Source: a virus
Direction: 5' to 3' (one strand)
Virus record (IMG/VR): IMGVR_UViG_3300020166_000010
DNA: 64,000 nt
Position 1 is the first letter of the stretch, and every line of letters begins with the position of its first letter. The notes beneath the pieces were generated by a model. It did no database searches. It was given only the letters and a program-made list of their open reading frames with translations, and was not told the DNA's origin. The translations under genes and the position numbers were made by a program. Positions 2,436 to 50,712 of the stretch are shown one piece after another.

Positions 2436-4286
2436 TTAAAATGAGAGTGGCATGAATCCTACCATAGGAATTGGACCACCTGGTGTTGCTATTCCACCTA
2501 AATATAAAAACTTTAATTTTAATAAGTGCTTTGCACATGCGCATGCAACTGCGGTTGCAACTAGAGTGGCAGCAACCGGAGTAGCCGGAGGAACTTCAAA
2601 AATCTTACCGCTGTTCCATGCTCTTCTTAAATCGTTTGCAAGTGATGTCTTGCTACCATAATATATTGGAGCAAACACCCCAAGTAACGGAGCGGTTATA
2701 TTACATGGTGGAATTGGCGGCCCACTTGTAAATGGCTGAGCTGCTGCTGATTGCCAGTATTTAATAATAGCACCTGCCATTATCTCATATGGATCCTCAC
2801 CATCTTCCTCTTGATCCTGCGAGTTTATCTCTTCCATGTAGTTGGCCCACTTCCTTTGAGTTTCCCACCATCTTTCTTGCTCTTTTTCATATAGTAAATC
2901 CTTTCCGCGTTTTCGCCATAATCGACCGGCTTGGCTAGTGTATGTGGCAACCGCTCCATCAATTGACGGAACGTACGTGAAGGCTTTAATTAAGCCTTGT
3001 TTTATTTCTTCTGGTATTTCTTCTGGCCTTTGCTTATGCTCTTCTTGAAAGACATATTGATTAATCTGATAATCCGCAGTAGACAGGGGCGGTATAATAA
3101 GTGTACTTGTTAAAGAATATTTATTACCTCCATCATTTATTACTTTATTTCTTTCTTCTTTTTCGGCATTTCTCCATGCTTTTTCTAAAGATTTTATTTT
3201 ATCGTATATCTTTCTAGAAAGACCCCTGTATCTGTATGGTATCTCTGTTCCATACTTTAGAAGCTCTACCCATAGCTTATATCCTGCTGAATTATCATTC
3301 CCTGTTAGAATTCTACTAACTAGAACATCTATTTTTTCTTCTTCAGTAAGATCTGGTATAGTATTTCTAATAGGCTTAGTAATATTCTCTGGATATCCTG
3401 CAGCGTCTCCTTGTAACTTTTCATCAATGCCACTTAGTTTCTCTAATACTCCACCATCACTTATAGTAATTGATTTAGTCTTATTTATTGTTTTGATTAA
3501 AGATTTACCGGACATATCTAGTATTTCTTTAAATGTATATGTATATTTACCAGGAACTGTGGGCACGTTGATTACAGCAAAGCCAGTGTTACCCCCAGCT
3601 CCACTACCTGAGCCTGATCCGCTGCCTGAACCCGATGATATCGAGCCAGATCCTACTGAACCTACTATTAGCGGAGATTGTTCAATTTCGTTTATTGTAT
3701 ATCTTATTTTAAAAGATTGTTCTGGATTAAATTTTTTAATTATAAATCGAACAACGTAATTATGGGATGGTGTATTTATATCTGAACTTGCTTTAGTAAC
3801 TACACTAAAATCTATATCTCCATCATTTGCGGTGTCATTCGGATCCTCCTCTGGATATGGGACCGGGCATGTTGATTCATATAGAGGATAGTAATTAAAC
3901 TTCTGAAGAGTGTCTGTATTCTCTGAAGTCCATTTTTCTATCTCGCACTGTGCGTCAAATGTTAGATCGGATTCTGGAAGTATTTCCGTAATAGACTGGT
4001 ACTGTGATAAAGTTTTTCTATCTTCAAGAGAGGTTTTATAATCTTCGAAAAGCTTTTTAAATGCCTTGTCAAATCCTTCCGCTAAAACTGGCTTTACACC
4101 AGCATTACTATGTGTATTTCCGAATGGTGTTTGTGCTGTTGATACTGCGGCAACATATTCATCTGCCAGAAACGAAGCAAAGTCTCCAATACCAGGAGCA
4201 TTAGGAGGTAATCCCATACTCTCTGCACTTCTTGCTGTTAGTTTTGCAGATACGTTATTAATAAATAAAGGCCATTTTGCCGGCAT
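2436..4286 (-). CDS. baseplate/tail-tip associated structural protein (putative)
   Basis: 616 aa, directly downstream of the gp5-like spike; has a Gly/Ser linker and a Pro/Gly-rich C-terminus. Confidence 0.55.
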   Translation of the reverse strand: MPAKWPLFINNVSAKLTARSAESMGLPPNAPGIGDFASFLADEYVAAVSTAQTPFGNTHSNAGVKPVLAEGFDKAFKKLFEDYKTSLEDRKTLSQYQSITEILPESDLTFDAQCEIEKWTSENTDTLQKFNYYPLYESTCPVPYPEEDPNDTANDGDIDFSVVTKASSDINTPSHNYVVRFIIKKFNPEQSFKIRYTINEIEQSPLIVGSVGSGSISSGSGSGSGSGSGAGGNTGFAVINVPTVPGKYTYTFKEILDMSGKSLIKTINKTKSITISDGGVLEKLSGIDEKLQGDAAGYPENITKPIRNTIPDLTEEEKIDVLVSRILTGNDNSAGYKLWVELLKYGTEIPYRYRGLSRKIYDKIKSLEKAWRNAEKEERNKVINDGGNKYSLTSTLIIPPLSTADYQINQYVFQEEHKQRPEEIPEEIKQGLIKAFTYVPSIDGAVATYTSQAGRLWRKRGKDLLYEKEQERWWETQRKWANYMEEINSQDQEEDGEDPYEIMAGAIIKYWQSAAAQPFTSGPPIPPCNITAPLLGVFAPIYYGSKTSLANDLRRAWNSGKIFEVPPATPVAATLVATAVACACAKHLLKLKFLYLGGIATPGGPIPMVGFMPLSF

Positions 4287-19420: not shown

Positions 19421-20137
19421 TTATTCATTGTCTAATTTCCATTTGTCATATCTTTCAACAACATCAATTAAGATCTTAGCTCTTACGATATCTTTTTGTG
19501 TAAATTGGTGGTGACCTATTCCTTTGATACCTTTCATTAGTTCGGTAAAAGGCTCAATCCCTGCTGAGTTCTTTGAAATATCATACTGGCTCACATCACC
19601 TGTTACGATCACCTTAGAGGTCTTTCCCATTCTGGTAACAAATAACATAAGTTGTTTAAACGTGGCGTTCTGTGCCTCATCAAGTATCATGAGTGAGTCA
19701 TCATAAGTATCTCCTCTCATAAACGCTAAAGGTCTAAATTGAATAATTTCAGATTGAACTAATTGTTCGGTTAATACTGGTCCAACTATTTTAGTTAAGT
19801 TAGAAATATATGATTGCATATATGGATCTATCTTTTCTCCGATATCTCCAGGAAGAAACCCTAGTTTCTCACCAGCCTCTTGAATAGGCTTACATAAAAT
19901 AATGTTTTTGATTTTGTTATCTGCAAATAATTTTAATGCAGCGTAACATGCTGTAAATGTTTTTGAAGTTCCGGCAGGTCCAGAGCAAAATGTAATTTCA
20001 TTCTCTAATATGTTTTGTAAATAAGCTTTTTGAGATTGTCTTAATTGTGCTTTTATATCTGCTGGTTTAATAATGACTTTACGTCTGTTAATTCTGTTAT
20101 TTTCGTTTCCGGTTTTATTATCAGAATTCTTCTTCAT
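19421..20137 (-). CDS. phoH: PhoH-like ATPase
   Basis: GPAGTSKT, LGFLPG, FMRG, DEAQN, TRMG and GD.SQ.D motifs. Confidence 0.93.
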   Translation of the reverse strand: MKKNSDNKTGNENNRINRRKVIIKPADIKAQLRQSQKAYLQNILENEITFCSGPAGTSKTFTACYAALKLFADNKIKNIILCKPIQEAGEKLGFLPGDIGEKIDPYMQSYISNLTKIVGPVLTEQLVQSEIIQFRPLAFMRGDTYDDSLMILDEAQNATFKQLMLFVTRMGKTSKVIVTGDVSQYDISKNSAGIEPFTELMKGIKGIGHHQFTQKDIVRAKILIDVVERYDKWKLDNE

Positions 20138-20155
20138 ATATTTATTATGCTATGT

Positions 20156-20413
20156 TTAATCCCCTGCCATTGTAACAAGTTCTTTTAATTTCATTAATTT
20201 ATCACACTTCTCATACTCTTCTAGTCCTTCAAAATACTCTACTAAAATATTAATAAACTCACTTCTCTGGCCAATACCATGGGGTATCTCGATTATATCG
20301 TTTCCTTCTTTGAAAACAACGAATCGATTCACGGTCTTTGTGAAGTTTCTTGTAATGGTGTAGTACGAAGATCTCATTAAAGAGTCTCTGTCTTCTCCTA
20401 GAATATCTTTCAT
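20156..20413 (-). CDS. small protein with C-terminal UVR-like motif (EEYEKC)
   Basis: YFEGLEEYEKCDKL; start reassigned to MKDILG. Confidence 0.65.
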   Translation of the reverse strand: MKDILGEDRDSLMRSSYYTITRNFTKTVNRFVVFKEGNDIIEIPHGIGQRSEFINILVEYFEGLEEYEKCDKLMKLKELVTMAGD

Positions 20414-20522: not shown

Positions 20523-20711
20523 TTATTCTGGATTGTTAAATTTTTGCTCGACGTATTTTGCTTTTTGTAATTTAACACGTTTTGCTGCTGAAGGTTTGGT
20601 ATAATCTTTACCTTCGCGAAGGGCCTTAGTTTGGCCTGTTTTATTTACTTTATATTTAAATGACTTTAAAGCCTTTTCTATATTTCCTTTTTCTACTTTG
20701 ATTATTAGCAT
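20523..20711 (-). CDS. rpsU: ribosomal protein bS21
   Basis: MLII..G.NIEKALK.FK.K..KTG..LRE..Y.KPS..KR pattern, Bacteroidota-type. Confidence 0.9.
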   Translation of the reverse strand: MLIIKVEKGNIEKALKSFKYKVNKTGQTKALREGKDYTKPSAAKRVKLQKAKYVEQKFNNPE

Positions 20712-20959
20712 TTTATCTTGTCAATAATTTTTTTAATGTTAGAACATTTTTCGTACTCTTCTAATCCTAGAAAAAAGTTTAATATATTAGTTAGTGCATT
20801 TACTTTTTCTGTAGGATCCGTTTCGCTCTTAAGAGCTTTTTCTTCGCCATTAACAACTGCATTATAAATCATGTTCATCATTGTTTCCTTTGAATCTTCT
20901 CTAAGGATTTCAATTCTATTTGAATCATCTTTTTCGGGAGTGTCTCCTAAATCATGCAT
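20705..20959 (-). CDS. small protein with C-terminal UVR-like motif (EEYEKC)
   Basis: FFLGLEEYEKCSNIK. Confidence 0.65.
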   Translation of the reverse strand: MHDLGDTPEKDDSNRIEILREDSKETMMNMIYNAVVNGEEKALKSETDPTEKVNALTNILNFFLGLEEYEKCSNIKKIIDKIKC

Positions 20960-21743
20960 TGCTTAATTCTTTAATTTGTTGAACGTGTTCTAATTGTTTT
21001 TCACTTAACTCAATATTGGATGTTCTTAATTTAATCATTAAGTTACCATATTGATTTTTATTATATATCGGAAATCCCATGCCCACAATTCTTAAAATCT
21101 TACCATCATACGAATTCTTAGGTACCTTTATCCTAACACTGTTTACTTTTGTGATAACTTCAAATTCACCACCTAATAGAATATCAAAAAAGGGTAGATT
21201 GTAATCCATCCAAATATCTCCGTTAGTTACTATCATTTCAGAATCTGGCATGATATTCATTATTAATATAACATCTCCATTTGGCGCCGAAGAATTAGCA
21301 GGATGGGGAAGTCCCTTTCCTTTTAATTTAAGCTTGGCTCCTTCATGAATTCCTTTCGGTATATTAACGTTAAATGTTGAGTGAGTTGTATCTATTCTTT
21401 TAGTTGTTCCGTGGTAAACTTCTTCTAAAGTTAATCGGATTCTAATGGTAACATCTGATCCTCTTGCATTTTGATTAAATGCATTATCAAACATATTAGA
21501 GAAATCTCCACCAAATTGATTAAAGAAATTATCAAATCCACCTGAACTAAAAGAATTCTTGAGATCATATTCCTTTTTCTTTTGGGAATCACTCAGTGTT
21601 TCGTATGCTTGTGAAATGTTTTTAAATTTGTCTTCAGATCCTCCAATATCAGGGTGGTGGACTTTAACAAGACCTCTATATGCCTTCTTAATATCCTCCT
21701 GACTTGCAGTTGGCTCGAGCCCCAGGATCTTATAGTAATCCAT
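20952..21743 (-). CDS. dnaJ: DnaJ/CbpA-type co-chaperone (no Zn finger)
   Basis: DYYKILG, HPD, a G/F region and a DnaJ C-terminal domain. Confidence 0.9.
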   Translation of the reverse strand: MDYYKILGLEPTASQEDIKKAYRGLVKVHHPDIGGSEDKFKNISQAYETLSDSQKKKEYDLKNSFSSGGFDNFFNQFGGDFSNMFDNAFNQNARGSDVTIRIRLTLEEVYHGTTKRIDTTHSTFNVNIPKGIHEGAKLKLKGKGLPHPANSSAPNGDVILIMNIMPDSEMIVTNGDIWMDYNLPFFDILLGGEFEVITKVNSVRIKVPKNSYDGKILRIVGMGFPIYNKNQYGNLMIKLRTSNIELSEKQLEHVQQIKELSNA

Positions 21744-21928: not shown

Positions 21929-22198
21929 TTATTTAAAGAATTGAATCTGTTCTTTAAGATCTGCACACTTCTCGTATTCTTCAATCTCTTCAAAGTAAAA
22001 CATGGTCTCTTCTATAATGTGCCTGATCATATCGGGATCACGTGTTTTATCCGTGTCGATTCCGTGTTTAACTATAGCTTCGTAGTTCGCACGTGCAAGG
22101 CGGTCCTTGAGGTTATCCAGGTGTTCTTGATCTTCGATCAATATTCCATTGTTTTCAGATTCCTCGTTAAATTCTTGTTCAAATTCAAAATTGTCCAT
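21929..22198 (-). CDS. small protein with C-terminal UVR-like motif (EEYEKC)
   Basis: YFEEIEEYEKCADLKE. Confidence 0.7.
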   Translation of the reverse strand: MDNFEFEQEFNEESENNGILIEDQEHLDNLKDRLARANYEAIVKHGIDTDKTRDPDMIRHIIEETMFYFEEIEEYEKCADLKEQIQFFK

Positions 22199-46476: not shown

Positions 46477-47145
46477 TTATCTTTTTTTAATAATTTCATC
46501 AATGATTCCGTACTTCTTAGCTTCAGCAGCGCTCAACCAAAAATCTCTAGTAGCGTCTTTCATTACTACCTCTGGCTTTTTACCACAGTATTCTCCTAAT
46601 AAAACAAACAATTCTTTGTTTACATCTTGCCAATTTTTCCAATCAATTTCAGCATCCTGTATATTTCCACTGAAACCCCCAGAAGACTGGTGTAACATTG
46701 TTGTAGAGTGCTTTAGTGACATTCTCTTACCTTTAGTTCCTGCTCCTAATAATACTGAACCCATTGATGCGGCCATTCCTGTGTTGATCGTACGTATATC
46801 ACACTTAATATAATCCATAACATCTACCATAGAAAGTCCTGATTTAACAGAACCTCCTGGAGAATCAATGTGCATTGTAATATCTCCTTCTGATGTCGTA
46901 TCTAAAAACATCAATTGAGCCTGTACTATCGTAGACATATTGTCATTAACAGGACCTGCAACCCATAACAATCTATCAGCCATCAATCTAGAAAAGATAT
47001 CCATTTGAGTAACTCTCATTTCTCTTTCTTCTAAAATATAGGGAGTCATTGAATTTTCGATCTGCTTTTCGTAGTAGTTCATGTTTGAAGAACTAACACT
47101 GTGATCGCTCATTGCGTATTTTTTAAACTCGTTACTGTAATTCAT
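46477..47145 (-). CDS. clpP: ATP-dependent Clp protease proteolytic subunit
   Basis: TPYILEER..DIFSRL, SPGGSV, AASMG, HQ and RDFW motifs; Bacteroidota-type propeptide. Confidence 0.95.
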   Translation of the reverse strand: MNYSNEFKKYAMSDHSVSSSNMNYYEKQIENSMTPYILEEREMRVTQMDIFSRLMADRLLWVAGPVNDNMSTIVQAQLMFLDTTSEGDITMHIDSPGGSVKSGLSMVDVMDYIKCDIRTINTGMAASMGSVLLGAGTKGKRMSLKHSTTMLHQSSGGFSGNIQDAEIDWKNWQDVNKELFVLLGEYCGKKPEVVMKDATRDFWLSAAEAKKYGIIDEIIKKR

Positions 47146-47443
47146 ATTCTTTAATTAAGTTTGTTACTTTTTCACAGGTCTCATATTCTTCCTGTTCTTT
47201 ATAATATTGCAATGACATTAATAATGATTTTTTGTAGCCTCCTTTTTCTAACTTAGCCTCCATGGTAGTTCCATCAGAATCTACAAAATAGCATAAAATA
47301 TTTATTTCATAATTACTTTTCATATTAAAATCTATAAAGTCTATCATTCTTTTATAGAATGCGTCAGTATCTATTACTGGACCGTGCTTAGATTCTAAGA
47401 AGCCATTATCATGTATATCAAAGTGTGGTATTTCTCCAATCAT
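47132..47443 (-). CDS. small protein with C-terminal UVR-like motif (EEYETC)
   Basis: YYKEQEEYETCEKV; overlaps the clpP start. Confidence 0.7.
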   Translation of the reverse strand: MIGEIPHFDIHDNGFLESKHGPVIDTDAFYKRMIDFIDFNMKSNYEINILCYFVDSDGTTMEAKLEKGGYKKSLLMSLQYYKEQEEYETCEKVTNLIKEYELQ

Positions 47444-47447
47444 TATA

Positions 47448-48302
47448 TTATGTTAATCTAATATTAAGATATTCTCTTAATATGTTACTATATGTTATTT
47501 GCTTGCTTTCAGTTGAAACAGCATCATTAATATCTTGCATGAAATTAATACCATACTCTGTTAATATCATATCATCTTTTGTTAGATTAAACAAAGGATT
47601 TTCAATGTTCATTGTATAGTTTTTACCTTGCTCATCGCTTTCTGAAATAATCTTAGAAGACATATCAAAATGTCTTTCATAAAAATGAATATTATCTGCG
47701 CAATGGTAGTATGTTCCTAACTCTAATTCTGGGTAAGTTTCTAACAACCATAATCTCATGTGTTGGTGTATGAAACTAAAGTAAGGTGCGTCAAATGTTA
47801 ATCCATAAAATATATCATTGGATCTCATTTGAACTTTCATATTCAATTTATTGTCTCTAATAAAAAAGTTGAGGTACATTGTACATACAAAATCTTTATT
47901 ACCTTCAAATTGAAATTTAGGTTGGTTTAAAAATGATATTGCTTGTCTTGTATTCTTGTCTGATTTTAAAGAATCTAGTGCCCATTGTAGTTGACCACCT
48001 AAAAGTAAATAACCATAATTAGAATTAATCTCGTTAGAATTTGGATTAGTTAAAGTCGACCACATTCCTGAGAATTGACCAATATAATCTACATCGCGAT
48101 CTCTATTAAGATACCAACATAGTTCTCCACCAAAATATTTCCAGTTAAAAGATCTACTATCAAAATGTGCAATTGTTTTAGTAGGATCGAATTCTAAAGT
48201 TTGGACAGTACGTTCTTTTACCTTCATATCTCGAGGTTGCGAAACGCTACCATTGTTTTCAATGTCTAAAATTAATTCTTTAAATTTATTGTTAAATGTC
48301 AT
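47448..48302 (-). CDS. thymidylate-synthase-fold enzyme, dCMP hydroxymethylase (T4 gp42)-like
   Basis: EINSNYG, DFVCT and MRSNDIFYGLTFD, with Asp where ThyA has the dUMP-specifying Asn. Confidence 0.75.
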   Translation of the reverse strand: MTFNNKFKELILDIENNGSVSQPRDMKVKERTVQTLEFDPTKTIAHFDSRSFNWKYFGGELCWYLNRDRDVDYIGQFSGMWSTLTNPNSNEINSNYGYLLLGGQLQWALDSLKSDKNTRQAISFLNQPKFQFEGNKDFVCTMYLNFFIRDNKLNMKVQMRSNDIFYGLTFDAPYFSFIHQHMRLWLLETYPELELGTYYHCADNIHFYERHFDMSSKIISESDEQGKNYTMNIENPLFNLTKDDMILTEYGINFMQDINDAVSTESKQITYSNILREYLNIRLT

Positions 48303-48332
48303 ATATTATATTATTAAAATATCTTACTAATA

Positions 48333-48359
48333 TTATACTACTATTTTAGAGAAAGTTTA
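48333..48359 (-). promoter_or_regulatory. putative middle promoter TAAAC-N17-TATAA
   Basis: Motif upstream of the TS-fold gene. Confidence 0.6.
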
Positions 48360-50317
48360 TCTTCTCCTTTTTTATATGATATTGAATAAACTTTAGTTCC
48401 AATTGTCATTTTCTTATCTATGATTGCGTCTGCTAAAATATCTTCTACGTAATTTTGAACTGCTCTTTTTAATGGACGTGCTCCATATAGTGGATCATAT
48501 CCTTGTTCTGCTAGGAATGCCTTTGCAGTTTTATTGATTTTAATAGAATAACCTTGTTTTTCTAATCTAGTGATAACTCTATTTAATTCAATATCTACAA
48601 TCTCCAACATATTATCTTTACTTAAAGAATTAAATAAGATCATGTCGTCTAATCTATTTAAGAATTCAGGTGCAAACTTATTTTTAAGTTCCTTTCTGAT
48701 AATAGATTCTACGTGAGATTTCTGAGTTGCAATTGAGCTATTACTTTCAAATCCTATCCCTGCTCCAAAGTCTGAAACTTTTTTAGCACCTACATTTGAT
48801 GTCATTATAATAATAGTATTCGTGAAATCTACAGTTCTTCCTAGGGAATCTGTTAATCTACCCTCGTCTAATACTTGCAATAATGTATTGAATGTATCTG
48901 GATGCGCTTTTTCAACTTCATCAAATAATACAACCGAATAAGGTTTACGTCTTACTTGTTCCGTTAATTGTCCACCACTCTCGTGTCCAACATATCCAGG
49001 AGGAGATCCAATTAATTTAGAAACATTAAACTTTTCTTGATATTCTGACATATCAATTCTAATAATAGAATCTTCATCACCAAAATAATAGTTAGCTAAA
49101 GCTTTGACTGTTTCTGTTTTACCAACTCCAGTAGGTCCAATAAACATAAAAGAACCAATTGGTTTTTTAGATGAACTAACACCAGCTCTAGATCTTTTAA
49201 TTACTTTACATAATCCAGTAACTGCAGAATCTTGTCCGATTATCATCGACTTAAGTTTAGATTCCATGTCCGTGATAACTTTACTTTCGTCGTCTGTCAT
49301 TCTAGAGATTGGAATTCCAGTTGCGTCTGAAATAGTTTCAGCGATATCATCGTATGTTACAGGGCGTCTGTTAATTCTTAAATCACTTTGCCAATCCGAA
49401 ATAGTTTTATCAATAATATCTCTTTGTTTTATTTCAGCATCTCTGAATTTTGCTGCCTTTTCATAATCTTGTTCTTCAACTGCTGCTAGCTTTTGAGACT
49501 TAACTACCTCAATCTTTTTCTCAGCATCTTTAATATGTTCTGGCATCTTAACCTGAGATAGGTGTACTTTTGCACCGGCTTCATCCATTAAATCGATTGC
49601 TTTGTCTGGTAATTCTCTAGAAGTAACATATCTATCAGAAAGTTCAACACATGCTTTTAGTGCCTCATCTGTATATTCTACCGCGTGATAGTCTTCGTAA
49701 TTACCTTTAATTCTATTTAAGATCTCGATAGAATCACTAATTGAAGGTGGATCAATAAAAACTTCTTGGAATCTTCTAGTAAGTGCTCCATCAGTTTCTA
49801 TATTTTCTCTATATTCATCGAGAGTTGTTGCCCCAATACATTGTACCTGTCCTCTCGCAAGGGCTGGTTTTAAAATGTTACTAGCATCTAAAGAACCGCT
49901 AACTCCACCAGCTCCTACCATTGTGTGAATTTCATCAACAAAGATTATAATATCTGGATTAGCCTTTAGCTCATCAACAATCTTCTTCATTCTCTCTTCG
50001 AATTCTCCACGATATTTAGTACCTGCAACAATCGTCGACATATTTAAAGAGATTACTCTTTTACCTGTAAGAGTCATTGCTACTTTTTTATCAACAATTC
50101 TTTGCGCTATAGCCTCAACCAATGCAGTTTTACCAACACCAGGATCTCCTAATATAATTGGATTGTTCTTCTTTCTCCTAGAAAGGATTTGACAAATTCT
50201 ATAAACTTCTTTGTCTCTTCCTATAATAGGATCTAATTTACCCTCAGAGGCTGCAGCTGTTAAGTCTTCTCCGAATTGATCTATTAACGGTGTTTTTGCT
50301 TGTTTCTTATTTGCCAT
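48341..50317 (-). CDS. clpC: ClpC-type AAA+ unfoldase lacking the N-terminal Clp domain
   Basis: Two AAA modules (GDPGVGKT, GPTGVGKT), UVR M-domain (EEQDYEKAA) and IGF loop; the protein starts directly at TPLIDQFGEDLT. Confidence 0.92.
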   Translation of the reverse strand: MANKKQAKTPLIDQFGEDLTAAASEGKLDPIIGRDKEVYRICQILSRRKKNNPIILGDPGVGKTALVEAIAQRIVDKKVAMTLTGKRVISLNMSTIVAGTKYRGEFEERMKKIVDELKANPDIIIFVDEIHTMVGAGGVSGSLDASNILKPALARGQVQCIGATTLDEYRENIETDGALTRRFQEVFIDPPSISDSIEILNRIKGNYEDYHAVEYTDEALKACVELSDRYVTSRELPDKAIDLMDEAGAKVHLSQVKMPEHIKDAEKKIEVVKSQKLAAVEEQDYEKAAKFRDAEIKQRDIIDKTISDWQSDLRINRRPVTYDDIAETISDATGIPISRMTDDESKVITDMESKLKSMIIGQDSAVTGLCKVIKRSRAGVSSSKKPIGSFMFIGPTGVGKTETVKALANYYFGDEDSIIRIDMSEYQEKFNVSKLIGSPPGYVGHESGGQLTEQVRRKPYSVVLFDEVEKAHPDTFNTLLQVLDEGRLTDSLGRTVDFTNTIIIMTSNVGAKKVSDFGAGIGFESNSSIATQKSHVESIIRKELKNKFAPEFLNRLDDMILFNSLSKDNMLEIVDIELNRVITRLEKQGYSIKINKTAKAFLAEQGYDPLYGARPLKRAVQNYVEDILADAIIDKKMTIGTKVYSISYKKGEDKLSLK

Positions 50318-50341
50318 GTTCTTAATTAGTATTTATAGTTA

Positions 50342-50368
50342 TTATAACGAATAAACGGGATTTGTTTA
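50342..50368 (-). promoter_or_regulatory. putative middle promoter TAAAC-N17-TATAA
   Basis: Motif upstream of clpC. Confidence 0.6.
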
Positions 50369-50378
50369 TTTATTAATG

Positions 50379-50412
50379 AAAAAAAAAGAGCCAGTGGTTA
50401 ACTAGCTCTTTT
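50379..50412 (-). terminator. intrinsic terminator
   Basis: Minus strand reads AGAGCUAGU-UAACC-ACUGGCUCU followed by a long U tract. Confidence 0.75.
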
Positions 50413-50496: not shown

Positions 50497-50712
50497 TTAA
50501 AGATTTACAGATCGCATAGTACATTGGGAGCAAACTACAGCTGAGGTATTTTCAGTTACTTCCGTCCATTCTTTACATTGAGTCTCACCATCGTTCGGCG
50601 CCCATTGTGGATATCTACTTTCGTCTAAGTCGGAATTCATACAAATCATCATGATCTTTTTGTCAGTCTTTTTAGTTTTCCAAACTTTGGTCATCTTTTT
50701 CTTCTTGGTCAT
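50497..50712 (-). CDS. small Cys-rich (Zn-binding) protein
   Basis: C..C..CSQC pattern; sits behind a GAAAC-N17-TATAA promoter (50733-50759). Confidence 0.65.
   Translation of the reverse strand: MTKKKKMTKVWKTKKTDKKIMMICMNSDLDESRYPQWAPNDGETQCKEWTEVTENTSAVVCSQCTMRSVNL

Follow-up and report, generated by a model that had tools for sequence, protein, structure and literature searches.

An N-domain-less ClpC in a predicted ClpC-ClpP operon of a large marine phage, and a family of small proteins sharing a C-terminal hairpin

Results

The clp operon

The window analysed here, 64,000 nucleotides of IMG/VR virus record IMGVR_UViG_3300020166_000010, is a piece of an uncultured large marine phage that encodes its own clpC and clpP. 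The genes lie on the minus strand in the order terminator-like hairpin, promoter-like site, clpC, a thymidylate-synthase-like gene (thy), the gene of a small protein that we call D, and clpP; the four genes are closely packed, and the stop of D overlaps the start of clpP by 14 nt. The initial annotation had described the ClpC as lacking its N-terminal domain and had proposed four small proteins with a shared C-terminal helix, D among them, as its adaptors. The features of the locus are the following:

50384-50412 and 50341-50368, minus strand: terminator-like hairpin and promoter-like site 5' of clpC (consensus scan and sequence reading; pattern matches only)
48341-50317, minus strand: clpC, double AAA+ unfoldase without N-domain (N-less), 658 residues (Pfam, PHROG 4871, Staphylococcus aureus alignment)
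49439-49522, minus strand: UVR motif of the ClpC middle domain, residues 266-293 (Pfam UVR and pairwise alignment)
48749-48757, minus strand: IGF tripeptide of the ClpP-docking loop of ClpC, residues 521-523 (sequence reading)
47448-48302, minus strand: divergent thymidylate-synthase-like gene inside the clp operon (Pfam Thymidylat_synt, 76 bits)
47132-47443, minus strand: protein D, an EEYETC hairpin protein of 103 residues (open reading frame (ORF), conserved slot, structural model)
46477-47145, minus strand: ClpP peptidase, 222 residues, with an N-terminal extension of about 45 residues (Pfam CLP_protease (PF00574), 193 bits; NCBIfam NF011091)

The promoter-like site, clpC, the thy-like gene, D and clpP make up what is, by prediction, a self-contained phage protease operon, kept in a lineage of large marine phages.

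The phage ClpC contains the Pfam domains AAA, AAA_lid_9, UVR, AAA_2 and ClpB_D2-small, the UVR motif scoring 23.4 bits against a Pfam cut-off of 21.5 (PF02151). The Walker A and Walker B motifs and both pore loops are intact (residues 57, 128, 394, 465, 101 and 441). Compared with the ClpC-type class I Hsp100 proteins, the two AAA+ modules, the UVR middle domain and the IGF loop are present and the Clp_N domain is absent: Pfam gave no match to Clp_N (PF02861) in the protein, and the PHROG 4871, ClpA and ClpV profiles are matched only from position ~161-167 on. In a pairwise alignment with S. aureus ClpC (reference sequence from a contaminant contig), the start of the phage protein falls at S. 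aureus residue 147, in the same linker where the published S. aureus delta-N construct starts. A stop codon lies in frame six codons 5' of the clpC start. When a local Clp_N hidden Markov model (HMM) was built from five bacterial ClpC/ClpB N-domains (positive controls above 210 bits) and run against the six frames of the window, nothing was found (best E 0.31), and nothing was found in the related loci either. A weak PF02861 match in the search over five sister contigs (in G011) was below threshold, and was rejected as it belongs to a DUF2828/DUF7788 protein. The initial description of a 658-residue ClpC that has kept its UVR middle domain and IGF loop has thus held up, and so has the absence of any Clp-N domain upstream or elsewhere in the window and the related contigs. 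By its sequence, the phage ClpC corresponds to the engineered delta-N ClpC, but as a naturally occurring form.

The orthologues in related contigs are all of about the same length (~656-674 residues) with 66-77% identity. G520, G522 and F523 in the IGF loop region are invariant in the orthologues, as are D284, Y285, E286, A288, R292 and D293 of the middle domain across nine of them; Y285, the aromatic residue at the middle domain's tip, aligns with F436 of S. aureus. N-less ClpC homologues were also found in three huge phages of 484-642 kb (LR745206, LR756502 and LR756508; L095, L096 and L107). Two of these three carry a short acidic N-terminal tail on ClpC, and two of the three have two full ClpP genes.

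Two sister contigs have an interrupted clpC. In sister phage L112 (G008:C1:63000-67200) the N-less clpC is fractured into two ORFs (265-1560 and 2768-3880). The first stops inside the second Walker A motif and then has ~32 extra residues beginning with Cys; the second, which lies about 1.2 kb further downstream, begins with ~113 extra residues whose last two are His-Asn, after which ClpC resumes. Such an arrangement resembles an atypically split intein whose N-piece is short. In L091 (G003:C1:9393-13862) clpC is in two frames with a break near residue 494, which could be a frameshift or an assembly error.

ClpP looks active, the Ser, His and Asp motifs being readable in the translation. Its N-terminal extension is kept in sister phages, and it represents a long form and not a miscalled start, because NF011091 (221 positions) matches it end to end over residues 5-222. 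The thy-like gene is very divergent, with all NCBIfam ThyA models far under their cut-offs, and its position between clpC and D is conserved; its product may be a different pyrimidine-modifying enzyme.

The order clpC-thy-D-clpP is kept in every related locus covering it. In 11 related loci and three European Nucleotide Archive (ENA) contigs, D lies between thy and clpP, abutting or overlapping clpP throughout, and its head type was seen solely in this slot. Across the same related loci the identity of D is 32-41%, compared with 70-77% for ClpC.

Four proteins with a common C-terminal hairpin

A six-frame regular-expression search found exactly four EEYE.C sites in the window, each 10-15 residues from the C-terminus of an ORF and of the form EEYE[KT]C. 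Besides D (ORF at 47132), the proteins are A, B and C (ORFs at 20156, 20705 and 21929), which lie together in another part of the window with genes for a chaperone and a ribosomal protein:

20156-20413 (ORF open to 20488), minus strand: protein A, an EEYEKC hairpin protein of 85 residues (ORF; structural model)
20705-20959, minus strand: protein B, an EEYEKC hairpin protein of 84 residues, its start overlapping the dnaJ stop (ORF)
21929-22198, minus strand: protein C, an EEYEKC hairpin protein of 89 residues (ORF; six-frame regular expression)
19421-20137, minus strand: PhoH (Pfam)
20523-20711, minus strand: bS21 ribosomal protein (Pfam, 39.6 bits)
20952-21743, minus strand: DnaJ, J-domain and C-terminal domain (Pfam)

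The most likely start of protein A is the 26th codon of its ORF (20413), as in most homologues, giving 85 residues. Most of 80 related loci have retained the gene order exonuclease, C, DnaJ, B, bS21, A, PhoH, RNase H, and a reduced form of this block (DnaJ, B-like, A-like, PhoH) occurs in a distant phage with A at 35% identity. The DnaJ of the window has no zinc finger, and dnaJ and bS21 are interleaved with the three hairpin proteins.

An HMM of the hairpin alone recovered A-D at E 1e-10 to 1e-14, and the next match in the window was at E 0.8, a gap exceeding ten orders of magnitude. What the four have in common is confined to their last 25-32 residues, and full-length profile comparisons align just 24-32 columns. 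For the heads alone the hhalign probability was below 6% for every pair, so the description of a variable head with a shared tail, and with it the initial observation of unrelated N-termini, is right at the sequence level. The initial observation of four small ORFs, including one that overlaps the clpP start, was also confirmed. On the result for the heads, an origin of A-D as full-length paralogues was rejected.

The family extends far beyond the window. A word-indexed search gave 590 matches, and an exhaustive search 1,272 clusters at 50% identity, nearly all of them stand-alone proteins of 65-125 residues with the motif at the C-terminus. A single longer protein was found when fused forms were sought (226 residues, head unassigned). 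A tblastn search of protein A against 50,697 phage records had no match, Pfam had none for A-D, and no PHROG match to any of the four was better than E 0.02. At least 144 of 150 family representatives retain the hairpin Cys; one distant B-like protein has Ser in its place. In several head types a further conserved residue is a potential ligand: His45 in A, Cys51 in D and, in many B-type proteins, a C-terminal Cys. C-type proteins have a single Cys and no such second residue. The family marked by the hairpin ranks among the larger uncharacterised families of small proteins in marine phages, with a near-invariant Cys.

The AlphaFold 2 models of A and D had mean predicted local distance difference test (pLDDT) values of 73.5 and 89.6, respectively. 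Both are predicted to end in a helix, a three-residue turn and another helix, an aromatic residue opening the last helix, and the hairpin Cys is at the start of this helix. The D model is compact and confident, and in it the hairpin is packed on a third helix and a small sheet. A Foldseek search of both models against the PDB gave nothing at E 0.001 or better. Known ClpC adaptors (MecA, McsA/McsB, ClpS, MdfA) were not above noise in Foldseek or VIA searches, McsA appearing at E 6.2 for the A model.

Comparison of the hairpin with the UVR motif

The initial annotation had taken the shared tail to be a UVR motif. The UVR motif occurs at the UvrB C-terminus and in UvrC, the ClpC middle domain, McsA and the plant CLPF/EXE/UVR proteins, which are trapped with CLPC1 (PMC8889267). 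When the hairpin profile was compared by hhalign with a 17-sequence UVR profile, 19 columns aligned in register with a probability of 27% and a score of 16.0. Column-permuted controls (n = 100) scored 7.0 +/- 1.9 with a maximum of 13.3, and none reached 16.0. The two motifs have in common the helix-turn-helix form, acidic residues, an aromatic residue, Glu and a small residue in the same register, and Leu or Ile six positions past the aromatic. They differ in that an invariant Cys takes the place of the first Ala and that Arg-Asp is absent in the four window proteins, whose scores are under the Pfam threshold; moreover, the hairpin in the D model is predicted to be packed on other elements and not free-standing. 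The nearest named cluster to D in the ESM Atlas is viral and has UVR on 39% of its members, a lead only at its score of 0.83.

Direct searches argue against membership. None of the four window proteins matched PF02151 at E up to 1, and the hairpin HMM failed, even at E 100, to detect the ClpC middle domain of the same phage. None of 36 A-type proteins matched PF02151 at E up to 10; weak matches were obtained in two of 57 family representatives (best E 0.0035). Sequence profile searches of the PDB returned no UvrB, UvrC, ClpC or McsA chain. The identification of the tail as UVR therefore failed at the Pfam threshold; a weak likeness, in register and above the permutations, was observed. The tail of A-D is UVR-like in register and is perhaps, at a chance that we put a little below even, a diverged relative of UVR, though not a demonstrated member.

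In a six-frame PF02151 scan of sister phages G003 and G004 no EEYEKC gene was recovered, and the only matches were the ClpC middle domain and a 251-residue protein. The latter (G004, L121:844-1599) has a textbook C-terminal UVR (Pfam, 24.6 bits) and was considered as the real partner of ClpC. This candidate was dropped because neither the window nor any of 23 other related contigs has it; it is thus an accessory gene.

Discussion

The explanation that fits the observations best, which we hold tentatively and at somewhat less than an even chance, is an N-less ClpCP operon with D as a candidate Clp accessory, the hairpin being a docking module and A, B and C working elsewhere. As to its parts, a protein-docking role for the hairpin, possibly as a diverged UVR-type hairpin, is about as credible as the whole, and D may be a dedicated accessory of the phage ClpC-ClpP, a possibility that we rate slightly lower. 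By gene order only D appears tied to the protease, and we treat the idea of an adaptor family as hypothetical.

What D could do is suggested by the S. aureus protein. The S. aureus delta-N ClpC assembles into planar hexamers and associates with ClpP in the absence of an adaptor; it pairs head to head via the middle-domain tip, makes rods together with ClpP, and shows no degradation unless F436 is mutated (PMC12583610). The phage ClpC retains Y285, the counterpart of the residue that drives this self-inhibition in S. aureus. Since the phage ClpC keeps the tip, and delta-N ClpC is inhibited through it, one may reasonably expect some factor to cap it; D is the sole candidate with contextual support. 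The most likely action of D would be to cap the middle-domain tip of ClpC, so that the N-less hexamers would stay active and not pair head to head; alternatively D might bind to ClpP. Contacts at the tip are known for ClpC partners (PMC12583610), and plastid UVR-domain proteins are enriched among CLPC1 interactors (PMC8889267). In a more far-reaching version, which we consider unlikely, tip pairing would be the only brake remaining on a natural delta-N ClpC and D would release it with a Cys-bearing hairpin that mimics the tip; the wider EEYEKC family would then consist of tip mimics docking on coiled-coil regulators of host or phage chaperone machines.

The alternative that survives best is that the hairpin family has nothing to do with Clp and binds host factors, DnaJ/Hsp70 or the ribosome and translation apparatus, the position of D by clpP being a historical accident in a packed genome. 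We regard this as no less possible than a role of D as Clp accessory, and several results speak for it or weigh against our preferred explanation. The family is huge and its members nearly always stand alone. Two complete phage genomes of 62-65 kb have one family member each without ClpC, ClpP or DnaJ; LR756508 has an N-less ClpC and no family member; and in two phages of 635-642 kb the family members are hundreds of kilobases from the N-less clpC. The best VIA rows for the D model were tetratricopeptide (TPR)-type repeats with Z up to 6.2, which is below the noise level of the tool for helical models, so the likeness of its three helices to this general peptide-binding scaffold is non-significant; no UvrB or ClpC chain was on the VIA list for D. 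Gene order is itself weak evidence for a link between D and Clp, since it was read from a single phage lineage whose synteny is conserved in general. Within this lineage 13 of 24 fragments have both the family and ClpC, which was set aside as uninformative because all the records are incomplete and closely related. On the other hand, an accident does not easily account for D staying precisely between thy and clpP as its sequence diverged to about 35% identity, nor for a head type that is confined to that slot.

The proposal of the initial annotation was that each of the four EEYEKC proteins is an adaptor whose UVR tail pairs, as a coiled coil, with the middle domain of the N-less ClpC and in this way delivers chosen substrates to it. 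It has in its favour the unrelated heads with a shared tail, the weak in-register UVR likeness of that tail, and the fact that known ClpC partners touch the middle-domain tip (PMC12583610). Of this proposal the part concerning D stands to the extent that conserved gene order ties D to clpC and clpP, whereas A, B and C belong to the DnaJ-bS21-PhoH block and not to the clp genes, even in the distant phage, and the family is found also in complete phages without any Clp gene. Furthermore, no fused or multi-domain forms are known save the one 226-residue protein, and heads of 45-75 residues are small for substrate receptors. It is accordingly improbable, in our estimate, that all four serve ClpC in this way, and equally so that A, B and C are ClpC adaptors; we infer that the partners of these three lie elsewhere, in connection with the DnaJ-bS21-PhoH block or with the host.

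An explanation that starts from the Cys is that this invariant residue, flanked by invariant Glu, is a metal or redox site, perhaps completed across a dimer or by a second residue such as C51 in D, the C-terminal Cys of many B-type proteins or His45 in A, so that the family would be a sensor or a metal-bridged oligomer. The conservation patterns of the Cys and of the second residues agree with this, and a small residue serving helix packing alone would be expected to vary to Ala, which the Cys almost never does. In contrast, the C-type proteins carry one Cys only, Ser replaces it in the distant B-like protein, and neither a metal-binding fold nor a metal-binding family was matched in the Pfam and fold searches, which together make such a site doubtful, as much so as the four-adaptor proposal. 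That the proteins are decoys jamming host ClpC or UvrB/UvrC by mimicry of the UVR hairpin is the least probable of the alternatives and one to which we give very little weight: the weak in-register likeness and the presence of family members in phages without their own ClpC would suit it, but the UVR hallmarks Ala-Ala and Arg-Asp are replaced in the four window proteins and the Cys kept in nearly all representatives points to a requirement foreign to UVR motifs.

Small phage proteins that act on ClpC have a precedent, as SPO1 Gp53 reportedly acts on host ClpC and requires its N-domain. Gp53, like D, is small and phage-encoded, and it has been proposed to redirect a ClpC-ClpP protease; it is reported to be an adaptor-like modulator of host ClpC (PMC6873191), whereas here the ClpC is phage-encoded and N-less. 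Compared with the ClpC-ClpP of Bacillus subtilis and S. aureus, where MecA is an adaptor, the phage system has the same two AAA+ modules, short coiled-coil UVR middle domain, tip aromatic, IGF loop and ClpP partner. The proteins scanned included no homologue of MecA, McsB or ClpS, and the candidate partner D is without detectable similarity to known ClpC adaptors. The phage protein shares the linker start position with the engineered delta-N ClpC (PMC12583610), and differs in having lost its N-domain naturally, a loss that is seen again in several huge phages. Proteostasis genes (chaperones, Clp protease) have already been noted in the huge Bacteroidetes phages that encode bS21, which resemble the present phage as large phages with bS21, PhoH, chaperones and Clp protease; neither the N-less state of ClpC nor the hairpin family is mentioned in the passages of that paper that were consulted (PMC9723584).

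A natural N-less ClpC in a conserved operon with ClpP and a small fast-evolving protein offers a ready-made system for studying how such an unfoldase is restrained or targeted. The regulation of ClpC is an active field for drug targets, and the role of the N-domain has been dissected only recently, by engineered deletions.

One further gene accompanies the operon. Just 5' of the terminator-like hairpin upstream of clpC lies a lysine-rich ORF of 71 residues with five Cys, possibly a zinc ribbon (50497-50712, minus strand). Most of the sister loci checked also have a homologue of about 40% identity upstream of clpC, its distance varying.

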